Below are positions 605 through 10,261 of a stretch of DNA of 11,236 nt, in pieces. The stretch's first letter is position 1, and each line of letters opens with the position of its first letter. The position numbers were made by a program, and so were the translations under genes. The stretch comes from Thermotogota bacterium (GTDB lineage: Bacteria > Thermotogota > Thermotogae > Petrotogales > Kosmotogaceae). The stretch covers positions 1 to 11,236 of the forward strand of contig JAYEJL010000007.1 in the NCBI GenBank assembly GCA_034660555.1, read 5' to 3'. A model generated the notes under the pieces. That model was not told the origin of the DNA. It saw only the letters and a program-made list of their open reading frames with translations, and did not search any database.

Positions 605-813
605 GGGGTCCTGACTTTTGTCGAGACGCCGCAGTAGGACGGCACATTCGGTGCGCGTGGAGTGGCTAAACACCCCATGATCACGGTGAATTCTGCTATA
701 GGTAATGCCATATTTGATGCTTTAGGTATCGATATTATGGAACACCTATAACCTCTGAAAGGATATGGAGGGCAATTCAGGATAAAAAACCAGAGATGAA
801 GCATGAATTTTGA
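605..813 (+). pseudogene. C-terminal remnant of a xanthine dehydrogenase-family molybdopterin-binding subunit
   Basis: Translates as GVLTFVETPQ*DGTFGARGVAKHPMITVNSAIGNAIFDALGIDIME, then after a frameshift near 744 PITSERIWRAIQDKKPEMKHEF*. This matches the GPFGAKGxGE...AIxNAIxDAxG...PITPERI C-terminus of Mo-hydroxylases. In-frame TAG at 635-637; 5' end cut at the inverted repeat. Confidence 0.85.
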
Positions 814-943
814 AACACAAAACTATCAAGGTTTGCAGGAATAGCAAAATAAAAACTTTTCGTGCTTTTTCCGCATGAAATCGTGAAAGATATAGGATTT
901 GGAGCATTTTTGATTCTTCACCTCTGTAAAAAACTGCAGGCTC

Positions 944-971
944 TTGACAAAAAATAGAACTTCTGTAAAGT
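944..971 (+). promoter_or_regulatory. Possible sigma70-type promoter for the permease
   Basis: TTGACA (944-949), 16-nt spacer, TAAAGT (966-971). The -10 box is weak. Confidence 0.3.
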
Positions 972-1055
972 CGGAAGGAGGCTAAGCGAAAATAATTTTA
1001 CAGCCTTAAGATTACAGTTATAGCATTAAGATAACATTTGGAAGGAGGAATTGCA

Positions 1056-2291
1056 ATGACAGACGGTCAAACAAGTGTTGGAAAACAGATAAAGGGGGTG
1101 ATAAGGCCCGGGGACCTTCTGCCCGTTCACCAGCTTTTGATTTTGGGGCTTCAACACACCTTTACCATGTTCGGAGCAACGATACTGGTGCCTATCCTAA
1201 CAGGTTTGAATGTTGGTGTGGCCCTATTTACAGCCGGAATCGGGACATTATGGTTCCACCTTGTTACTAAAAGGAAGATTCCAGTTTTTCTTGGTTCGTC
1301 ATTTGCCTTTATAGCTCCTGTGGCCCTGGTAGTGGAAAAGTGGGGTATCCCTGCAGCACAGGGTGGAATAATAGTAGCGGGTATGATATACTGTGTAATT
1401 TCAATACCGATATACTATTTAGGGACTAAATTCTTAGAAACCCTTTTGCCTCCGGTGGTAACGGGGCCGATAATAATGGTGATAGGCCTTAATCTTGCCC
1501 CTGTAGCCATCGGTAGTGCCAGCGAGAACTGGATAATTGCCATTATCGTTTTAATTACAGTAGTCATCGTTAATATTTATGTAAAGGGTTTCTTCCGCTT
1601 GATTCCGGTACTAATAGGTTTATTGGTGGGATATATAGTATCGCTGATAGCGGGGATAGTAGATCTTACACCTGTTAAAGAAGCGGCAGTATTAGCGATG
1701 CCCAATTTTACCTGGCCTGTTTTTAATGCCGCTGCTATCGGCCTGATTGCCCCTGTGGCACTTGCTACTATAGTGGAGCACGTAGGGGATGTTCTGGCCG
1801 TAGAGGCTACCGTTGAGCAGGACTTTATAAAGGATCCGGGCCTCCACAGGACGATGATCGGAGACGGTATAGCTACATCTTTGGCTGCTCTCTTTGGCGG
1901 ACCTGCCAATACCACTTATTCTGAGAATACAGGGGTTTTAGCGCTTACTAAGGTGTGGAAGCCGGAAGTTATGCAGATAGCAGCCCTGATGGCCATAGCT
2001 TTTTCATTTGTTGAGAAACTGGGGGTAGCTATAAGGACCATACCGGCACCGGTAATTGGCGGTATTTCAATAGTGCTGTTCGGAATGATAGCCAGCATAG
2101 GGCTAAGGACCGTTGTCGAAAACAGTGTGGATTTTAAACAGTCCCGAAACCTCATTATCTCCAGTGTAATTCTGGTTATCGGTATAGGGGGAGCGGTTCT
2201 TAGATTATGGGGCAATGTGCAGCTCGGCGGTGTGGGCCTGGCAGCAATTATCGGAATAATATTAAATCAAGTTCTGCCTAAAGAGAGTTAA
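1056..2291 (+). CDS. uraA: NCS2/NAT-family nucleobase:cation symporter, uracil permease (UraA/PyrP) clade
   Basis: Motifs GLQHTFTMFGAT, FLGSSFAFI, EHVGD, GDGIAT, GGPANTTYSENTGVLALTK and many hydrophobic helices. ATG 1056 has the AGGAGG RBS just upstream and is preferred over TTG 1038. Confidence 0.92.
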   Translation: MTDGQTSVGKQIKGVIRPGDLLPVHQLLILGLQHTFTMFGATILVPILTGLNVGVALFTAGIGTLWFHLVTKRKIPVFLGSSFAFIAPVALVVEKWGIPAAQGGIIVAGMIYCVISIPIYYLGTKFLETLLPPVVTGPIIMVIGLNLAPVAIGSASENWIIAIIVLITVVIVNIYVKGFFRLIPVLIGLLVGYIVSLIAGIVDLTPVKEAAVLAMPNFTWPVFNAAAIGLIAPVALATIVEHVGDVLAVEATVEQDFIKDPGLHRTMIGDGIATSLAALFGGPANTTYSENTGVLALTKVWKPEVMQIAALMAIAFSFVEKLGVAIRTIPAPVIGGISIVLFGMIASIGLRTVVENSVDFKQSRNLIISSVILVIGIGGAVLRLWGNVQLGGVGLAAIIGIILNQVLPKES

Positions 2292-2297
2292 AAGCTT

Positions 2298-2321
2298 ACA
2301 GGTGGGGGGTTCCCCACCTGT
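2298..2321 (+). terminator. Hairpin directly after the permease stop codon, probable terminator
   Basis: ACAGGTGGGG-GGTT-CCCCACCTGT, a perfect 10-bp stem; the U tract is poor. Confidence 0.65.
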
Positions 2322-2426
2322 TACCTATTTCGTTCAGCAGTTTTAAATAGAACCTAAAATAGCCTGACGCTAAAACGGGACAAGTTCTGTGGTTGTGAAT
2401 AGCTGCATGAGAAAGGGGGGATTGGT

Positions 2427-2600
2427 TTGGAATTATGGGAAGCGCTCAATCTTAAAAACAGCGGATTGATCTCTGCAGTAGGTGGAGGTGGCAAGACAGT
2501 ACTGAGTTTCAGCCTTGCACGGGAACTCAAAGCTCAGGGCAACAACTTCTGGGACAAACTCGTGTATCCAGGAAAGTCAAGTACATTCAGAGGGAGATAA
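2427..2600 (+). pseudogene. yqeC: N-terminal remnant of YqeC-like selenium-dependent Mo-hydroxylase accessory protein
   Basis: AAGGGGGG RBS and TTG start; MELWEALNLKNSGLISAVGGGGKTVLSFSLARELKAQG resembles the YqeC N-terminal P-loop (ISxVGxGGKT...LAxEL). Similarity ends near 2545 and the frame stops at 2600. The neighbouring xdh remnant fits this call. Confidence 0.75.
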
Positions 2601-2772
2601 ACCCACCAAGGTAAAAGCCAAAATCTTGTAGCTAGGTCAGTAAGGGGGGGAAGGAAACTGGACTCTTGAAGCCTGATGACAAAGCCATCATAAGGGTGGT
2701 GGGCGAGTATCTGGACCGTAAGGAACAAGTGAACGCATAGGTAGCCTCGATACCCAAAACTCTGTGGGAAAA
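2562..2772 (+). mobile_element. Degenerate 5' fragment (domain I) of a second, different group II intron
   Basis: GTGTA start, then GCTAGGTCAGT...GAAGCCTGATGACAAAG...GGCGAGTATCTGGACCGTAAGGAACAAGTGAACGC...AGCCTCGA, a motif order I recognise from group II domain I. The 5' end deviates from GUGYG; no DV or RT is present; it ends at the inverted repeat. Confidence 0.55.
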
Positions 2773-2860
2773 GTGACAGACTCCATTTTTTTACAACATT
2801 TTATCCGGCTGTTTATTGGTATTAGAAGCTTTTTGGAATGAAGGGAAATAACGTCCAACG
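2773..2860 (+). repeat. Right arm of 87/88-bp inverted repeat (partner 518-604)
   Basis: GTGACAGACTC...GGAATGAAGGGAAATAACGTCCAACG is the reverse complement of 518-604. Confidence 0.95.
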
Positions 2861-3240
2861 CTGACGTTTTGTCCAACGTTGACACTTCCTCCAACGCTCG
2901 TCTTGCAACTCGCTTCGTCCAACGATTGGAGCAAGAACAATGATATGCGCGTTAAAGGGCAAGCGGATTTGCTCCAAAAAACGAACGGATATGCTGATCT
3001 ATGATCAGGATATGCGAATCTGACGATTCGGGTATGAGCTTCGCGGATGAAGACCAAAAGCACACACCTCCACGCTAACACGGGACTCCTTTCTAGAGGG
3101 CATTAGAACCAATCGGTTCATGTGTTTTATTATTTATGGTATTTTTCTCGGTTCTCGAATTCTCAAACTTTCGTTTTGCATTTTTAGGTTTTTTTGAACT
3201 TCCGTACAACGTACAACCTACTGACGCACAACGTGTTTTT
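2853..3240. repeat. Intergenic repeat mosaic A (REP/BIME-like)
   Basis: Modules: GTCCAACG array (2853, 2871, 2889 variant, 2917); GGATATGC array (2941-3052); ACACACCTC...GAGGG (3062-3100); CGGTTCA...TTATTTATGGT (~3114-3140); CTCGGTTCTCGAAT (3147-3160); TTTGAACTTCCGTACAACG...ACAACG (3192-3240). Each has a counterpart in 6771-7590. Confidence 0.85.
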
Positions 3241-4608
3241 CTAAATATGTATCTCCCTATCGTTTGCTTTTTCAAGTGCCCCCAAAACAGTCTCTGTTAA
3301 TGTTGGATGTGGATGTATCGATTCCATAAGTTGCAAGGTAGTTAGTTTATTTCTTACAGCGATTACACCTTCCATAATCATTTCAGTCGCATTAGGGGAA
3401 ACTATTGTAAGGCCAAGAACAGTGTCATCTTCTTCATCTGAAATAACCTTTGCAAAGCCTATTCTTTCTTCCATAGTTCTGGCTTTTCCAGTTGCAGAAA
3501 TGGGAAATTTTGATACCTTAATTTTTTCCTTTTCAACATCCTTTTCTCTTAAACCAACCGATGCAACTTCCGGGTTTGAAAATATCACAGAGGGAATTGC
3601 TGAGTAGTCCATTTTTGTATCTATTCCGGCGATGTTTTCTGCTGTAACTATTCCTTCATGCATCGCTGTATGTGCCAGCATGTACTTAGCTTTTATATCG
3701 CCGATAGCATAAACATTCTCTATATTTGTACACATATGATCGTCTGTAATAACGCCTTTGTCTATTTCAACACCGAGCGCTTTAATATCCTCTGTTATAG
3801 CAGGTTTTCTCCCCACAGCGAGTAAAACACTTTCTGTTTCTAATTCCTGTTGTTCGTCTTTTTCCTTATTCTTAATAGTTGAAGTGAATGTACCATTTTC
3901 CTTTTCAACAGTCGTTACTTCGGTTTTTTCTAATACTTTTACTCCCTTCCTTTTGAGTGATTTTTTGATATCTTCGGCAACATCTTTATCCTCTGTTGAA
4001 AGTATCTGATCAAGAACTTCAACAAGATTGACCTTCACTCCGAAGGAAGAAAAGAATGTAGCAAATTCAACTCCAATATATCCACCACCTATTATAAGAA
4101 TTGATTCAGGGAATTTTTCCATGCTAAAAACATCGTCGCTGGTCATAATGCCTTCGACATTTTCAAAAGGCGGAAAATTGGCTGGATTTGAGCCCTGAGC
4201 AAGGATCAAATTCTGTCCTTCAACAAATGCACCGTTCTCTTTAATTCTGATTTTTCCTTTATCTACTATTTCTGCTGTACCTTCAATAATTTCTACATTG
4301 TTCTCATTCAACAAATGTTCTATACCTTTACGGGATAGTGTAACTGCTTTTTTTGAGTGCTTCATTACTTTGCCTACATCGTAGCTGAGTTCTTCTGCAG
4401 TTACACCGAAACGTTTACCTTTATCATTCATTTCAGAATAAAGATGTGAAGCGTTCAACAAAGCTTTTGTAGGTATACAACCTACGTTGGTACAGGTACC
4501 TCCTAATTCATTTTTTTCAATAAGCACAACGTTTTTACCAAGTTTACTTAGCCTAATGGATACTACATAACCTCCTGGTCCTCCACCAATTATAATGACA
4601 TCATACAT
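3241..4608 (-). CDS. lpdA: Dihydrolipoamide dehydrogenase (E3 / glycine cleavage L protein)
   Basis: FAD motif GGGPGG, redox disulfide GGTCTNVGCIPTK, NAD motif GGGYIG, C-terminal HPHPTLTE; GAGGAGG RBS upstream. Confidence 0.97.
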   Translation of the reverse strand: MYDVIIIGGGPGGYVVSIRLSKLGKNVVLIEKNELGGTCTNVGCIPTKALLNASHLYSEMNDKGKRFGVTAEELSYDVGKVMKHSKKAVTLSRKGIEHLLNENNVEIIEGTAEIVDKGKIRIKENGAFVEGQNLILAQGSNPANFPPFENVEGIMTSDDVFSMEKFPESILIIGGGYIGVEFATFFSSFGVKVNLVEVLDQILSTEDKDVAEDIKKSLKRKGVKVLEKTEVTTVEKENGTFTSTIKNKEKDEQQELETESVLLAVGRKPAITEDIKALGVEIDKGVITDDHMCTNIENVYAIGDIKAKYMLAHTAMHEGIVTAENIAGIDTKMDYSAIPSVIFSNPEVASVGLREKDVEKEKIKVSKFPISATGKARTMEERIGFAKVISDEEDDTVLGLTIVSPNATEMIMEGVIAVRNKLTTLQLMESIHPHPTLTETVLGALEKANDREIHI

Positions 4609-4730: not shown

Positions 4731-5067
4731 ATTAAAAATTCTGCATCTTGAAGACATGATATTGGAAGAACCTTTGTGCCTTCAGAAATTTTGAACAAGC
4801 CTGGAGAACTGAAAACAGCACCACGAACGACTTGATGGAAGCGGTTATTCCGATGGTTTAAAAAATGGAGAGATAACATTAGAAGCCCAAATTCTTGCAA
4901 TAGCTGATGTAGTAGAGGCCATGACTTCTCACAGACCTTATAGACCTGCTCTTGAATTCAACGAAGCATTCAACGAAATAAGAAATAATGCTGGTATGCT
5001 TTACAATGAAACAGCAGTAAAAGTATGCCTTGAACTTTTTGAAGAAGGTTTTGCTTTTTCTGATTAG
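4731..5067 (+). pseudogene. HD-GYP (c-di-GMP phosphodiesterase) domain remnant
   Basis: One frame reads IKNSAS*RHDIGRTFVPSEILNKPGELK. From 4816 another frame reads QHHERLDGSGYSDGLKNGEITLEAQILAIADVVEAMTSHRPYRPAL...FAFSD* (TAG 5065-5067). The segment normally between KPGxL and HHE is deleted with a frameshift. The 5' boundary is approximate. Confidence 0.9.
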
Positions 5068-5090
5068 TTATAAATAGTAATTTACAAAAC

Positions 5091-5115
5091 AAAAAAGGCA
5101 CCCGTAATGGGTGCC
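5091..5115 (-). terminator. Intrinsic terminator of the minus-strand small-ORF cluster
   Basis: GGCACCC-5 nt-GGGTGCC stem (5097-5115) followed on the minus strand by T6 (5091-5096). Confidence 0.85.
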
Positions 5116-5135
5116 AAAAGTTTAGGTGGTACCGT

Positions 5136-5228
5136 TCAGCTTCTCCAAAAGAGATCCTTCAGTGCCTGTAATTTCTGTTCCTATACCAATTTTTCTATGT
5201 CTTTTGCATTTCTATACAATCTTTTCAT
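5136..5228 (-). pseudogene. Small ORF 3, 30 codons with an internal TAG
   Basis: AAGGAGG RBS 9 nt upstream of the ATG; MKRLYRNAKDIEKLV*EQKLQALKDLFWRS*. TAG at 5181-5183. Similar to small ORF 1 on both sides of the stop. Confidence 0.65.
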
Positions 5229-6770: not shown

Positions 6771-7590
6771 TCCTAAGAAAGCGAGAATCCGAGAAGATTC
6801 GAAGAAACGAGAAACCGAGAAAGAACAAAAAAATGGTTAAATAAAGAGAATAGAGCCCCCGACTAATCTTTCATTTTTAAAAACGAGAATTAGAGAGTGT
6901 GATAAAACAACAAAAAATAAGAACCGATAATCCCTAGATTTAATTTTAAAGCTACTGTGCACAAGTGCGCTTAAAGAAACACACCTCACCACTTCGTGGT
7001 CCCCTCCTCTCAAATAGAGGAGATTCTAAAACATATAAACCAAAATGCGGTTTTTATCCTGAACTCTTATATTTGAACTTTCCAAACAACGCACAAACTA
7101 CTATCGTACAACGTTTTTTATTAATGGTTTTAGTCGGATCTCTGATCTCGGTTCTCGAATCTCGATTTTAATTTTAGATTCCACCCTTGAGGGTGGCCAG
7201 CTGTACCTAGCTGGGGGTGTAGATTTTTAATTTTATCTGCAAAGCGCATATCCAAGCGCAGCTCGCACATCCTGAGCTTCGCTCAGCATATCCGATTGCT
7301 TTACAAATCGCATATCAATGTTTTGTCTTTTGTACTTCCGAACAACCTACAACCAACAACCGACAACGTTTTCTTGATTTTTATCGTCGATTGACGAAGC
7401 GCCGCGTTCAGCAAGCGTTAGACGAAACGTCAGTGCTGGACGACTAGACGTGTTTTTCGAACCTGTCGGTTCACGTCTATTGTTATTTATGGTGGTTTTC
7501 GTCGAGTCTCGGGGTTTAGTTCGATGGACCAAGTGGAACGTTTGACTTTCTTTTAGTCTCGCTTTCTCGTCAACTGGGTTCTTCTCGTTT
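6771..7590. repeat. Intergenic repeat mosaic B (REP/BIME-like)
   Basis: Modules: CGAGA runs (6782-6820; inverted 7557-7590); double hairpins 6979-7022 and 7181-7220; CAAC modules ~7072-7119 and ~7329-7372; CTCGGTTCTCGAAT 7147-7160; GCATATCC array 7239-7317; inverted GTCCAACG module 7388-7442; CGGTTCA...TTATTTATGGT ~7467-7494; intron-target-like 20-mer 7527-7546. Confidence 0.85.
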
Positions 7591-7768
7591 TCTATATGAG
7601 CTTATCTCAATTTTTAATTTGTTTCACGTGATTTTATTTTTCGAATTGTTTTGTTGTTTATTAAAATTTCGTGCTATTATTTGAGAGTAATAGTCTGTGA
7701 TTTTACTTTGACCTTTATTACAATAACTAGGATGTTAAAAAAGTTGCAGTCTAGAGGGGGCAAACATT

Positions 7769-10261
7769 ATGAAGAGAATTTCACTTTTCATACTTACAGG
7801 TTTGTTAGTAATCTTTCTGTTAACTGCATGCCCACCAAAGGAAATATTGTATCTAAATATAGAAATTGAAACTACAGAAGATGCTTCAGGATCAGTTTAC
7901 CCCTTTGAAGGGGAATATCTTTATTATGAAGGTATGACACAAGAAATTATTGCAGCTCCTTCTGAAAGCTCAGTTTTTGAAAGATGGATAATAGATGGTA
8001 TTGAAGAAACAAAGGCATCGACGACAATAACAATAAATAAAAGTCTTACAGCTACTGCTTACTTTGAAAATGCAGAACCACCTGGAGTTAAATATACATT
8101 GACTGTTTTAAAATCTCAAGGAGAGGGAGAGATAGAACTTGCTTCAGGAACTTATGAATATGCTGAAAATTCAGTAATTTCATTAACCGCGACTCCAGCT
8201 GATGGATGGGAGTTCGTCAAGTGGGAAGTGGATGGAACCGAATACTCTACTGAAGACTCAACTACCTTGATCATGGATGCAGACAAAGAAGTAAGTGCCT
8301 ACTTTGAAGAAATCTCCCCAGAAGAATATACATTGTTCATGCTCGAACCTGAGGGTGAAGGAGATACATCGCCTACTTCTCCAGGAACCTACACATATGA
8401 AGAAGAGATTGAAATTATATTATCCGCTACTCCAACTGATGGATGGAAGTTCATTAAATGGGAAGTGAACGGAGAATTTTATTCCAGCCGTGAATCTGCG
8501 ACTTTACTTATGAACTCTAATAAAGAAGTGAAAGTATTTTTTTCGAATGATAGTGAGGGTTATATATTAACTACAATAGTTGAGGGCGATGGAAGGATAA
8601 AAATTGAACCAGAAAAAAACACATATTCCCAGGGAGAAATAGTTGAACTTGAAGCAATTCCTGATAACTGTTCTAGTTTTGTTAAATGGGACGGAGACAT
8701 TATTTCTGAAAAAGAGAAAATCGAACTGATAATGGATAATGATAAGATTGTTTACGCTGCTTTTAAAGAGAACGATAAACCTCCATCTGTAGAAATTATT
8801 TCACCTCAACCAGTACCAGAATATGTTAATGATTTATCTAAGGAATTTGAGTTTGCTTTCTCCCCCAGTAATGAAGGAGTAAATTTACATAAAATTTCTG
8901 CAGAAATATGTTCTGATAATTGGACATTTAACTCTAATATTTATGATAATGTTGGTCGGGGTGAACTTGTTTTGAGTTTTGATCAAGACAAAGTTATTGA
9001 TTGTGAAACATATTATGCAACTATTACTGTAGAAGATTGTTGTGGTAATGTAGCCTCAAAGCAAATTAATCTTACAATAGACAATATACTACCCAAACTG
9101 GATTTTTCAGTATGCGCTTTTAAAAATGAAAACAATTTTGTGGAAACGACTCTTTCCTGGACAGCCACAGACACTTGTTTTGATAAAATAAGAATCGAAG
9201 TAAATAAAGGAACCACTACTGAAACTTATACATTTGTCAATAAAGGTAACACAAAATGGATTATTCCTGTTGATGAACTAAACGAAGAAAATCTGGTTGT
9301 TAGAGCCACAGCTTACGATAAAGCAGGAAATACAGAGACTGTTTCAAGGACAATACCAGTCAGGAAACTATCAATGAGGGTAAATTCAGAAAATGCCGGG
9401 AGTGTTTCTCCAGCTCCGGGTGATCATTACTATCCATCATCAGTAAGAATTGGCTTATCTGCAGTACCAGATACAGAATACGCCTTTGATAAATGGATAG
9501 CCACAGCAGGTTCATTTGAAGACGAAGCTTCTGCTGAAACCAAATATTTGATGCCCGATCAAAATGCAACAATTACGGCAAATTTTACTCCTATTTGGAA
9601 AGGCTTTACTGAAAATCAATCAATTCTGCAACAGACAGCAAATGTTTCAGTTAATAAACCTCCTGGAGTTGAAACAGGAGATATGATAATTGTAATTCTT
9701 CACACAGATAACAGGATAGATGATAAATGGGCGAATGATCCATCATCTTTACAGGGTTTCTCAATTATCGGGCATTCCACTAATGAAAGCGACTATGAAA
9801 GACCAACAGTATCTGCAGCTTACAAAATAGCAGGAGAAAATGAACCAGCTTCATATTCCTTCGAAATTTCTGAAGAGATGCATTGGTATATTACTGCCAT
9901 ATGTATTAATAAATTTAATGGCATTGGGACAATTATTAGAAAAACTTCAGGAGAACAATCAGTGGAATCAATAACCTTTGATAATTTAACTACTTCAGAT
10001 AAATCATTAATAATTGCTGCAATAACTCAAAGACGTTCCACTGATTCAGATTATAATGCAAGATCCATAGTGCCTCCTCAAGGTATGAAAGAAAGGTACT
10101 CTTATTATTCATTCGAAACATTTGGAGAAGATGGTAAACCCAATGCATCTGGCGCTTCAAAATTAATGAAACCCGGACAAATTATTAAATCACCAACCTA
10201 CAGTTGGGATTATACTGGCAGAGCTGCCGGTATAATGTTTGAAATTATTCTCAACGACTAA
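7769..10261 (+). CDS. Surface lipoprotein with multiple divergent InlB-B-repeat-like domains, Ig-like segments and a distinct C-terminal domain
   Basis: Signal peptide with LTAC lipobox. Five repeats of the type YTLT...GxG...G.Y.Y......L.A.P..G..F.KW...........M.....V.A.F, acidic and beta-rich. TVEDCCGN and TAYDKAGN Ig-like turns. GAGGGGG RBS. Confidence 0.85.
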   Translation: MKRISLFILTGLLVIFLLTACPPKEILYLNIEIETTEDASGSVYPFEGEYLYYEGMTQEIIAAPSESSVFERWIIDGIEETKASTTITINKSLTATAYFENAEPPGVKYTLTVLKSQGEGEIELASGTYEYAENSVISLTATPADGWEFVKWEVDGTEYSTEDSTTLIMDADKEVSAYFEEISPEEYTLFMLEPEGEGDTSPTSPGTYTYEEEIEIILSATPTDGWKFIKWEVNGEFYSSRESATLLMNSNKEVKVFFSNDSEGYILTTIVEGDGRIKIEPEKNTYSQGEIVELEAIPDNCSSFVKWDGDIISEKEKIELIMDNDKIVYAAFKENDKPPSVEIISPQPVPEYVNDLSKEFEFAFSPSNEGVNLHKISAEICSDNWTFNSNIYDNVGRGELVLSFDQDKVIDCETYYATITVEDCCGNVASKQINLTIDNILPKLDFSVCAFKNENNFVETTLSWTATDTCFDKIRIEVNKGTTTETYTFVNKGNTKWIIPVDELNEENLVVRATAYDKAGNTETVSRTIPVRKLSMRVNSENAGSVSPAPGDHYYPSSVRIGLSAVPDTEYAFDKWIATAGSFEDEASAETKYLMPDQNATITANFTPIWKGFTENQSILQQTANVSVNKPPGVETGDMIIVILHTDNRIDDKWANDPSSLQGFSIIGHSTNESDYERPTVSAAYKIAGENEPASYSFEISEEMHWYITAICINKFNGIGTIIRKTSGEQSVESITFDNLTTSDKSLIIAAITQRRSTDSDYNARSIVPPQGMKERYSYYSFETFGEDGKPNASGASKLMKPGQIIKSPTYSWDYTGRAAGIMFEIILND

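Follow-up and report, generated by a model that had tools for sequence, protein, structure and literature searches.

REPs consist of a conserved stem of 5-13 bp that is directly preceded by an unpaired tag, GTAG or CGTC; they alternate in orientation within BIMEs, where defined linker motifs separate them, and REPINs are mobilised by RAYTs, which are Y1 HUH transposases whose genes the repeats flank. BOX elements have the form boxA-boxB(n)-boxC, in which the modules are 45-59 nt long and have a conserved sequence. CRISPR arrays are built from repeats of 23-50 nt with unique spacers of similar length and are accompanied by cas genes or a leader. The Csr/Rsm sponge RNAs present multiple GGA motifs in hairpin loops and have their own promoter and terminator, the ToxI-like arrays of type III toxin-antitoxin systems are near-identical tandem repeats of about 34-36 nt located directly upstream of an endoribonuclease toxin gene, and integron attC sites are imperfect palindromes of 57-141 nt with R''/R' boxes (RYYYAAC...GTTRRRY) and with IntI nearby. 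To our knowledge, bacterial genomes rarely tolerate intergenic spacers of 1 kb, and almost no non-coding RNA has been characterised in the Thermotogota.

Among the Thermotogota, Kosmotoga olearia and Mesotoga prima carry CGTC-tagged REPs which, in the available excerpts of a REP survey, have a CGTC head, a stem of 8-9 bp, a loop of 4-5 nt and a CCA tail (PMC3733652). In the Beggiatoaceae, TAACTGA direct repeats place a short motif two to six times in intergenic regions with no evident mobilising enzyme; the excerpts of the report on them propose that they are binding sites for a post-transcriptional regulator and give predicted structures for six direct repeats (PMC4679880).

The DNA analysed here is a stretch of 11,236 nt (the window) which contains two arrays of the octamer GGATATGC, referred to as linkers, separated by variable spacers. 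A pattern scan of genome contigs with three consecutive linkers as the query returned 106 loci. When the window was compared with all 106 by blastn, each of the 13 HSPs fell on one locus, L038, a 5-kb stretch of a contig from a Kosmotogaceae MAG, so that only 1 of the 106 loci is homologous to the window (72-92% identity over 32-209 nt). L038 has three such arrays (copies a to c), all on the reverse strand, at about 446-523, 2500-2569 and 4044-4119, and also carries all of the sequence types that neighbour the arrays in the window. The two loci share a dispersed, modular, non-coding repeat that is thus common to two Thermotogota genomes. The invariant part of its linker-containing module (the G module) is the linkers, and the stems between the linkers are maintained by compensatory change.

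Linkers and hairpin spacers of the G module

The initial annotation had reported an array of short repeats at 2941-3052, and the linkers and spacers were found at exactly these positions. On the plus strand the linkers are TGATATGC (2941-2948), GGATTTGC (2965-2972) and GGATATGC (2987-2994 and 3008-3015), followed by the further linker-like octamers GGGTATGA (3030-3037) and GGATGAAG (3045-3052), and the spacers are in order 16, 14, 13, 14 and 7 nt long. The last of these octamers, which had been counted as a sixth repeat, is not a linker and is instead the start of a conserved flank, GGWTGAAGAYCAAAAGCACACACCTC, that is common to this copy and L038, which leaves five GGATATGC-like linkers. Copy A of the G module therefore occupies 2941-3037, with spacers of 16, 14, 13 and 14 nt, and its conserved flank (gcttcgc GGATGAAGACCAAAAGC) occupies 3038-3065 and matches 3975-4043 of L038 (alignment A3). 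Both are assigned to the minus strand, which is the canonical strand of the mosaic at this point and on which the linker reads GCATATCC. Copy B lies inverted at 7246-7317 and has four linkers, which read GCATATCC on the plus strand (canonical here) and GGATATGC on the minus strand; from 7317 to 7246 on the minus strand its order is TGATATGC-16-GGATATGC-13-GGATGTGC-11-GGATATGC. The two copies pair as inverted repeats over 40 nt (80%) and 38 nt (76%). Successive linkers are spaced 24, 22, 21 and 22 nt apart in copy A and 19-24 nt apart in the other copies.

With up to one mismatch allowed, GGATATGC occurs 15 times in the window compared with 5.9 +/- 2.7 times in shuffled sequence, where none of 200 shuffles reached 15, and 8 of the 15 matches fall in the two clusters formed by copy A and the inverted copy B. 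The linker is near-palindromic, with six of its eight bases equal to its own reverse complement, and the array consequently looks almost alike on both strands; the strand on which it was initially read may be antisense to the one favoured by the rest of the mosaic. The earlier characterisation of the array as constant short linkers with variable structured spacers remains a fair description of it. No coding signal was found across the G module, and a protein search with the spurious ORF that spans it, meant to lead to more copies, gave no homologue and no candidate. A coding reading was rejected because the unit lengths (19-24 nt) do not run in multiples of three and because of the lack of Pfam matches.

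Two spacers of copy A, tgatc-tat-gatca and gaatc-tgac-gattc, had been read as perfect hairpins, each closed by the flanking C and G, and this reading holds. With energies computed on each spacer plus its flanking C and G, they fold at -4.7 and -5.0 kcal/mol, and 0.000 and 0.003 of shuffles, respectively, are as good. Spacers 1 and 2 of copy A form no significant hairpin (-1.8 and 0.0 kcal/mol) and look decayed, since their counterparts in L038 do form hairpins. Summed over all 20 spacers in the five copies, hairpin energy amounts to -66.8 kcal/mol, whereas shuffled spacers give -17.2 +/- 5.2 kcal/mol (z = -9.6). Each G module has three to five hairpin-forming spacers with stems of 5-7 bp, and two neighbouring linkers can make a stem longer, in alternative registers, when their ATAT cores pair beyond a G.G mismatch.

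Types of unit recur among the copies. The 16-nt first spacer occurs in gcc..ggc, tgc..gca and gat..atc versions, and the 13-nt unit tgatctatgatca is found unchanged in copy A and L038 copy c, its version in copy B being tgagcgaagctca. Relative to L038 copy c, copy A has one additional unit and is otherwise equivalent; L038 copy a has this unit too (the unit gaatctgaYgattc is common to copies A and a), and in L038 copy b one unit is duplicated. Judging from these unit patterns, the number of units would shift by recombination or slippage between identical linkers.

Covariation had been proposed as a check on the structure, and in the first hairpin covariation exceeds that of shuffled controls and pairing that of slid controls. 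In its alignment (alignment A2, five rows), 88.6% of the cells are paired and in four of the seven pairs both partners have changed. Covariation scores 0.471 compared with 0.137, a value that none of 500 shuffles reached, and pairing in the slid controls is at most 37%. RNAalifold applied to the five whole G modules predicted 22 pairs, 10 of them with compensatory changes, in a sample of five copies from 16 kb that are not independent, as some of their units hardly differ from one copy to another. In alignment A2, the left linker is invariant at positions 2-8 and the right linker at positions 1-4 and 6-8. The compensatory changes across copies point to action of the G module as a single strand, either RNA or ssDNA. 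The same hairpins form on both strands with either RNA parameters (z from -1.4 to -3.7) or DNA parameters (z from -1.1 to -5.6), and counts of G.U versus C.A mismatches, made by eye from the folds, split two to two, so that these measures favour neither RNA over ssDNA nor one strand over the other. The structured RNA or ssDNA scaffold that was initially suggested is partly supported: its stems are kept by compensatory change, and it is not a stand-alone mini-array.

The intergenic mosaic and its genomic setting

Rather than being independent, the array is one module of larger intergenic mosaics of about 0.3-0.8 kb, for which a motif map and reading of the sequence distinguished at least seven module types, those other than G being mostly unstructured motif arrays. 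Besides the G module, with its GGATATGC linkers and hairpin spacers, these are the P module (ACACACCYC and strong stem-loops), the D module (TCCAACG / TGGACGA arrays), the C and K modules (CGYACAAC and CAACC arrays), the F module (a GAACCnnnnGGTTC hairpin and GTTCACG repeats), the E module (TCTCG arrays) and the X module (a block repeated at 518-592 and 2786-2860 with 96% identity). Most modules are arrays of a motif of 5-8 nt. At least six mosaics are present in the 16 kb of the two genomes, with their modules recurring in differing order, and in its general kind the mosaic was found to be a non-coding, multi-copy, intergenic element with recombining sub-modules.

The minus-canonical modules of mosaic A are the X module (2773-2851, repeated inverted at 518-604), the D module (2850-2930, four TCCAACG motifs, which are of the TGGACGA type on the canonical strand), copy A with its conserved flank, and the P module (3066-3110), which consists of ACACACCTC, then the stem-loop ctcctttctagaggg, then cATTAGAACC. 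In the plus-canonical part of mosaic A (3103-3240), a GAACCaatcGGTTC hairpin is accompanied by TCTCG motifs and by a CGYACAAC array that ends in ACGTGTTTTT. The TCCAACG-type motif has five exact matches where 0.8 are expected. Mosaic B has a plus-canonical part at 6975-7600, with the order P, C, E, P', g, K, d, F, E, d, E, and a minus-canonical part at 6776-6930, with a CGAGA array and a ATCGGTTC-type start. A partial third copy on the plus strand at 505-620 contains the end of a d module and an X module; a group II intron interrupts it with its 5' end and extends leftwards on the minus strand from about 504.

In all three spacers of L038, the labelled modules share one orientation on the plus strand, which defines the canonical one, and the flagged array reads GCATATCC in it. 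For most of mosaic B (6975-7600) the canonical strand is likewise plus, the strand of its flanking genes, and both window mosaics contain an opposite-orientation block as well (2773-3100, including copy A, and 6776-6930). The P module adjoins the G array in four of five copies, and the composite P - G - D is found in three of five, with the fourth, copy B, having a K module inserted. In copy B this K module lies between G and d with T-runs on both sides, whereas the three other copies join G directly to d. A CGTGTTTT-type tail ends most modules, with 22 occurrences on the canonical strand versus 5 on the other strand in 3608 nt of mosaic from the window and L038; the strand-specific tail pattern is CG[TA][GAC]?TTT, typically AACGTGTTTTT. 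The tail is not a standard intrinsic terminator, given that no strong hairpin is located 5' of the module tails. Scans of the mosaics for promoters and standard intrinsic terminators gave nothing notable, and a terminator reading of the T-runs was discarded on the lack of hairpin-plus-T-run sites, with only CACG..CGTG mini-stems of 3-4 bp seen by eye. The structured modules are G and P only (mean z of -2.4 and -2.2), the C, F and E modules having values near 0. The P class has a mean z of -2.2 on the canonical strand and -1.6 on the reverse complement, and its copy at 3066-3110 has a z of -0.03.

The F modules (3106-3119, 7456-7475 and 6915-6928 of the window; 150-160 and 3683-3703 of L038) start with a GAACC-n3-4-GGTTC hairpin, after which GTTCACG repeats follow and end in CACGTG, an end that we take to resemble a parS half-site. 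In both window mosaics the switch in orientation falls at the F-module palindrome. The C/K modules (3203-3240, 7085-7122 and 7330-7375 of the window; 100-142, 243-283, 343-385, 2695-2775 and 3822-3905 of L038) are C/A-rich, with essentially no structure on the canonical strand, and AACCTAC occurs in several of them. The K modules at 7330-7375 of the window and 243-283 of L038 read ACCTACAAC, which is identical at 8 of 9 positions to the T. maritima DnaA box, ACCTACCAC, as redefined in the available part of a published report (PMC10316083). This likeness may be a coincidence or may mark DnaA-box-like clusters.

Mosaic A lies in the spacer 2292-3240 between genes for a uracil/NCS2 permease and dihydrolipoyl dehydrogenase, and mosaic B in the spacer 6771-7768 between genes for a PD-(D/E)XK protein and an InlB-B-repeat/Ig-like surface protein. 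Both non-coding spacers are unusually long, about 1 kb, and the mosaic spacers have a G+C content of 42-56% compared with about 30-38% for the genes. The dihydrolipoyl dehydrogenase is at most 62% identical to proteins from named Thermotogota (Fervidobacterium, Thermosipho and Marinitoga; 57% for Mesotoga), with another entry at 94%, which places the window in an undescribed Thermotogota lineage. A co-occurring gene such as a RAYT/HUH transposase or nuclease had been named as something to look for; in the 16 kb of the window and L038, from which 25 ORFs were scanned, there was no Y1_Tnp or other transposase domain, no integrase, no intact RT and no dedicated nuclease. The PD-(D/E)XK gene beside copy B is absent from the related L038 locus, and its product scores 23 bits where the Cas4 cut-off is 65 bits. 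Between the mosaics of L038, at 779-3535, are genes for an XRE HTH protein and an ImmA/IrrE peptidase, a DUF3368 protein, and a nucleotidyltransferase with HepT, which look like toxin-antitoxin or defence-type genes.

Positions 1-504 of the window hold, on the minus strand, the 5' part of a group II intron, with a GTGTGCC start at about 504 and an RF01999 match at 448-331 (101 bits). This intron sits inside the d module of the partial mosaic copy, which indicates that mosaic repeats serve as intron landing sites. Upstream of mosaic A is gene debris, namely what may be left of the N-terminus of a YqeC-like P-loop protein (2427-2545; a weak match, 21.8 bits versus a cut-off of 73) and, after it, an internal group II intron fragment (2588-2726; RF02003, 89.5 bits). 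The segments 518-592 and 2786-2860, comprising the X module and one D motif, form a 75-nt inverted repeat with 96% complementarity, with the uracil permease gene between its two arms. The repeat could give rise to an inversion, and it suggests a recent duplication of parts of the mosaic. Further along, what seems to remain of the C-terminus of an HD-domain-type gene, lacking an intact start, was recognised by eye on the plus strand at about 4760-5066, overlapped by a T-box match at 5001-5162 that is probably spurious (25 bits versus a gathering score of 93), and a stem-loop, ggcaccc-gtaat-gggtgcc, was noted by eye at about 5098-5116. In the 830-aa surface protein, repeats of 95 nt at 8142-8236 and 8379-8473 (75% identical) correspond to InlB B-repeat domains.

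Of the 106 loci that match the linker pattern, 79 consist of plain tandem repeats in which neighbouring spacers share at least 80% identity, and were taken as chance products of the pattern. By a rough estimate made with no control scan, chance alone would yield hundreds of tandem repeats with a period of 19-23 that contain the octamer, and no meaning is accordingly read into the wide taxonomic spread of the pattern loci. Dispersed GGATATGC arrays with spacers of 14-16 nt were seen in Phocaeicola coprophilus An818 (L033, L058 and L093) and in the Verrucomicrobia MAG BM_Day0_Bin.15 (L054, L067 and L069); as these loci were chosen by the linker pattern and otherwise have no similarity to the window, they may be unrelated to it. 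The Phocaeicola loci and L069 have variable, hairpin-forming spacers, including UUCG and GCAA loops in L069, and L054 and L067 have near-identical gctcgc-type spacers with no clear hairpin. Collections of plasmids and phages contained no match to the mosaic.

Possible roles of the mosaic

The explanation favoured here, tentatively and at somewhat less than an even chance, is that the G module, part of a lineage-specific mosaic repeat of an uncultured Thermotogota bacterium, acts as a single strand, likeliest a co-transcribed RNA, and has a structural role of the sort played by REP, BIME and BOX elements. The mosaics resemble beads on a string, with most beads ending in CGTGTTTT, and transcription through an intergenic mosaic would bring the G module into RNA form. 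The module is a chain of three to five short stem-loops with GGATATGC between them, each stem being closed by the C and G that border the linkers, and such a chain could be a structural block that serves as an RNase barrier, an insulator or a terminator aid. We infer that co-transcribed RNA is the likeliest form from the T-rich tails and from the co-orientation of modules within blocks and with most flanking genes, although both window mosaics hold minus- and plus-canonical parts, which counts against a uniform gene-linked orientation. Further points against the explanation are that the mosaics yielded no promoter or standard intrinsic terminator and that both strands, also with DNA parameters, fold equally well. 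In a thermophilic organism, stems as short as these may be only marginally stable. The two unpaired spacers in copy A are what weak constraint on this copy would produce. If the mosaic does act as RNA, the hairpin chain and its neighbours would be new cis-acting structural or protein-binding elements.

An unlikely alternative, though the strongest of those considered, is that the modules are selfish, orientation-specific mobile units which insert beside earlier ones at a T-run and of which only the 3' tail, CGTGTTTT, is recognised, with the recognising enzyme being an HUH/ssDNA transposase or a reverse transcriptase and the hairpins serving propagation rather than the host. Several features of the mosaics speak for this: the modules have a common 3' tail (22 versus 5 by strand) and no common 5' end, they vary in order and are constant in orientation within a block, the mosaics differ from the genes in GC content (42-56% versus 30-38%), and the T-run-flanked K module between G and d of copy B is missing from three other copies. 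The 96% identical 75-nt pair in the window suggests recent spread, and group II introns provide sources of RT in the genome. Weighing against mobility are the failure to find, in the window or L038, a gene for a transposase, a RAYT, an integrase or an intact RT, the lack of clean target-site duplications that can be read in the low-complexity T-runs, and module lengths without the 5' truncation usual in retroposed copies; we also know of no established case of RT-mediated insertion of non-intron RNAs in bacteria. If the modules are mobile, the common 3' tail and the strict co-orientation within blocks would suggest an insertion mechanism as yet undescribed in bacteria. It is improbable, in our estimation, that the mosaics grow by orientation-specific accretion through a SINE-like spread in which the 3' CGTGTTTT tail alone is recognised. 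The recognising activity would in that case be the RTs of resident group II introns or an ssDNA enzyme, and the GGATATGC chain would be a passenger whose stems are kept since a single-stranded intermediate must fold.

The suggestion made at the outset, that the array presents repeated sites for binding or cleavage, we regard as improbable. On this reading the single-stranded linkers between hairpins would be sites for an RNA-binding protein or an endoribonuclease, and the RNA would work as a sponge or be processed into separate hairpins. It would fit the status of the linkers as the most conserved positions in alignment A2, the presence of a hairpin on the flanks of every linker, and the GGA in the linkers, which in one case has the context CAGGATG and resembles Csr/Rsm motifs; the other modules, as unstructured motif arrays, could be further binding platforms. 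The GGA is located at the base of a stem rather than in a loop, however, the first linker (TGATATGC) lacks it and the canonical strand reads GCATATCC. No promoter or terminator was found in the mosaics that would define a small RNA, and homogenisation by recombination could explain the constancy of the linkers equally well.

That the modules are protein-binding arrays in duplex DNA (iteron-, centromere- or DnaA-box-like), with the mosaics organising the chromosome or titrating regulators, is very improbable. Direct short motifs about two helical turns apart (17-24 bp) are iteron-like, and adjacent K modules carry ACCTACAAC, matching ACCTACCAC, the T. maritima DnaA box given in the accessible part of the source, at 8 of 9 positions (PMC10316083). 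The spacing of the linkers is inconstant, however, a duplex site gives no reason for palindromic spacers with compensatory changes, and the elements are dispersed over several intergenic regions rather than confined to one locus, points that speak against a duplex-DNA role. Least credible of all is functionless 'cryptic simplicity', with minisatellites arising by slippage in decaying, unconstrained spacers, since despite the nearby gene remnants (the weak yqeC piece, the HD-like tail seen by eye and the group II intron fragment), the unusual length of the spacers (about 1 kb) and the 79 plain tandem repeats among 106 same-pattern loci, all of the spacers fold although they all differ, the modules keep a common orientation and tail, and homologous modules are conserved in two genomes at 72-92% identity with compensatory changes, which argues against neutrality.

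Comparison with known repeat systems

The initial annotation did not recognise the array as a named element, and this agrees with the lack of a match to any Rfam family or tagged REP. The mosaics gave no match to Rfam (release 15) in a permissive search (E <= 10), and the whole window (E <= 1) matched only the two group II intron pieces and the sub-threshold T-box. Literature searches returned no description of this mosaic repeat, and within the excerpts available, REP surveys were the only sources to mention Thermotogota (PMC12306157, PMC3733652).

CRISPR arrays are similar in their regular alternation of constant and variable segments. They were rejected on the grounds that the constant part is here 8 nt long, the variable part is 7-16 nt and self-complementary, there are four to six units, and no cas gene is present at the cut-off. 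The CsrB/RsmZ sponge RNAs are alike in having several GGA motifs amid hairpins; here GGA occurs in predicted folds at stem bases or in linkers, no promoter/terminator pair was found, and the sponge identity was discarded. A ToxI-like array was likewise dismissed, the units being 19-24 nt long with different spacers and the flanking genes differing between copies. Integron attC sites appear to differ, since by inspection the units here are 25-30 nt long, and the scanned ORFs of the window and L038 have no integrase domain. The TAACTGA repeats are comparable in their short conserved heptamer or octamer, intergenic location and lack of an evident mobilising enzyme, whereas in the excerpts of their description they are contiguous, without structured spacers, and of unrelated sequence (PMC4679880).

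The CGTC REPs of Kosmotoga and Mesotoga come from the same phylum and, in the survey excerpts, are likewise intergenic and palindromic and have no dedicated transposase, but the anatomy described for them was not found in the window or L038, a distinction that is based on the described anatomy (PMC3733652). Both strands of the window and L038 were scanned for REPs, defined as a CGTC, TGTC, CCTC, GTAG or GTGG tag with a stem of 7-10 bp (at most one mismatch) and a loop of 3-8 nt. The three matches obtained include none in the G array: one is a GTGG-tagged hairpin at 7193 in P' of mosaic B and the other two are in coding DNA. The REPs and BIMEs of the Enterobacteria and Pseudomonas are also non-coding and form clustered intergenic stem-loops in mosaics with compensatory change. 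Compared with REPs, the stems here differ and the constant part is an 8-nt linker, and compared with BIMEs, all units run in the same direction and share a single type of linker.

Pneumococcal BOX elements (PMC3049150) are likewise modular interspersed intergenic repeats; they have a variable number of tandem internal units and are predicted to fold. The unit here differs in consisting of an 8-nt linker and a variable hairpin, and there are many more module types with a common T-rich tail. The mosaics inflate the intergenic length and attract group II introns, and they can mislead gene callers as well as finders of CRISPRs and tandem repeats. Spacers of about 1 kb are here filled by ordered, punctuated motif arrays that have been found so far in one deep Thermotogota lineage only. 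The mosaic is an interspersed intergenic repeat, and it is unusual among such repeats in combining constant linkers and variable hairpins in a punctuated, co-oriented mosaic.
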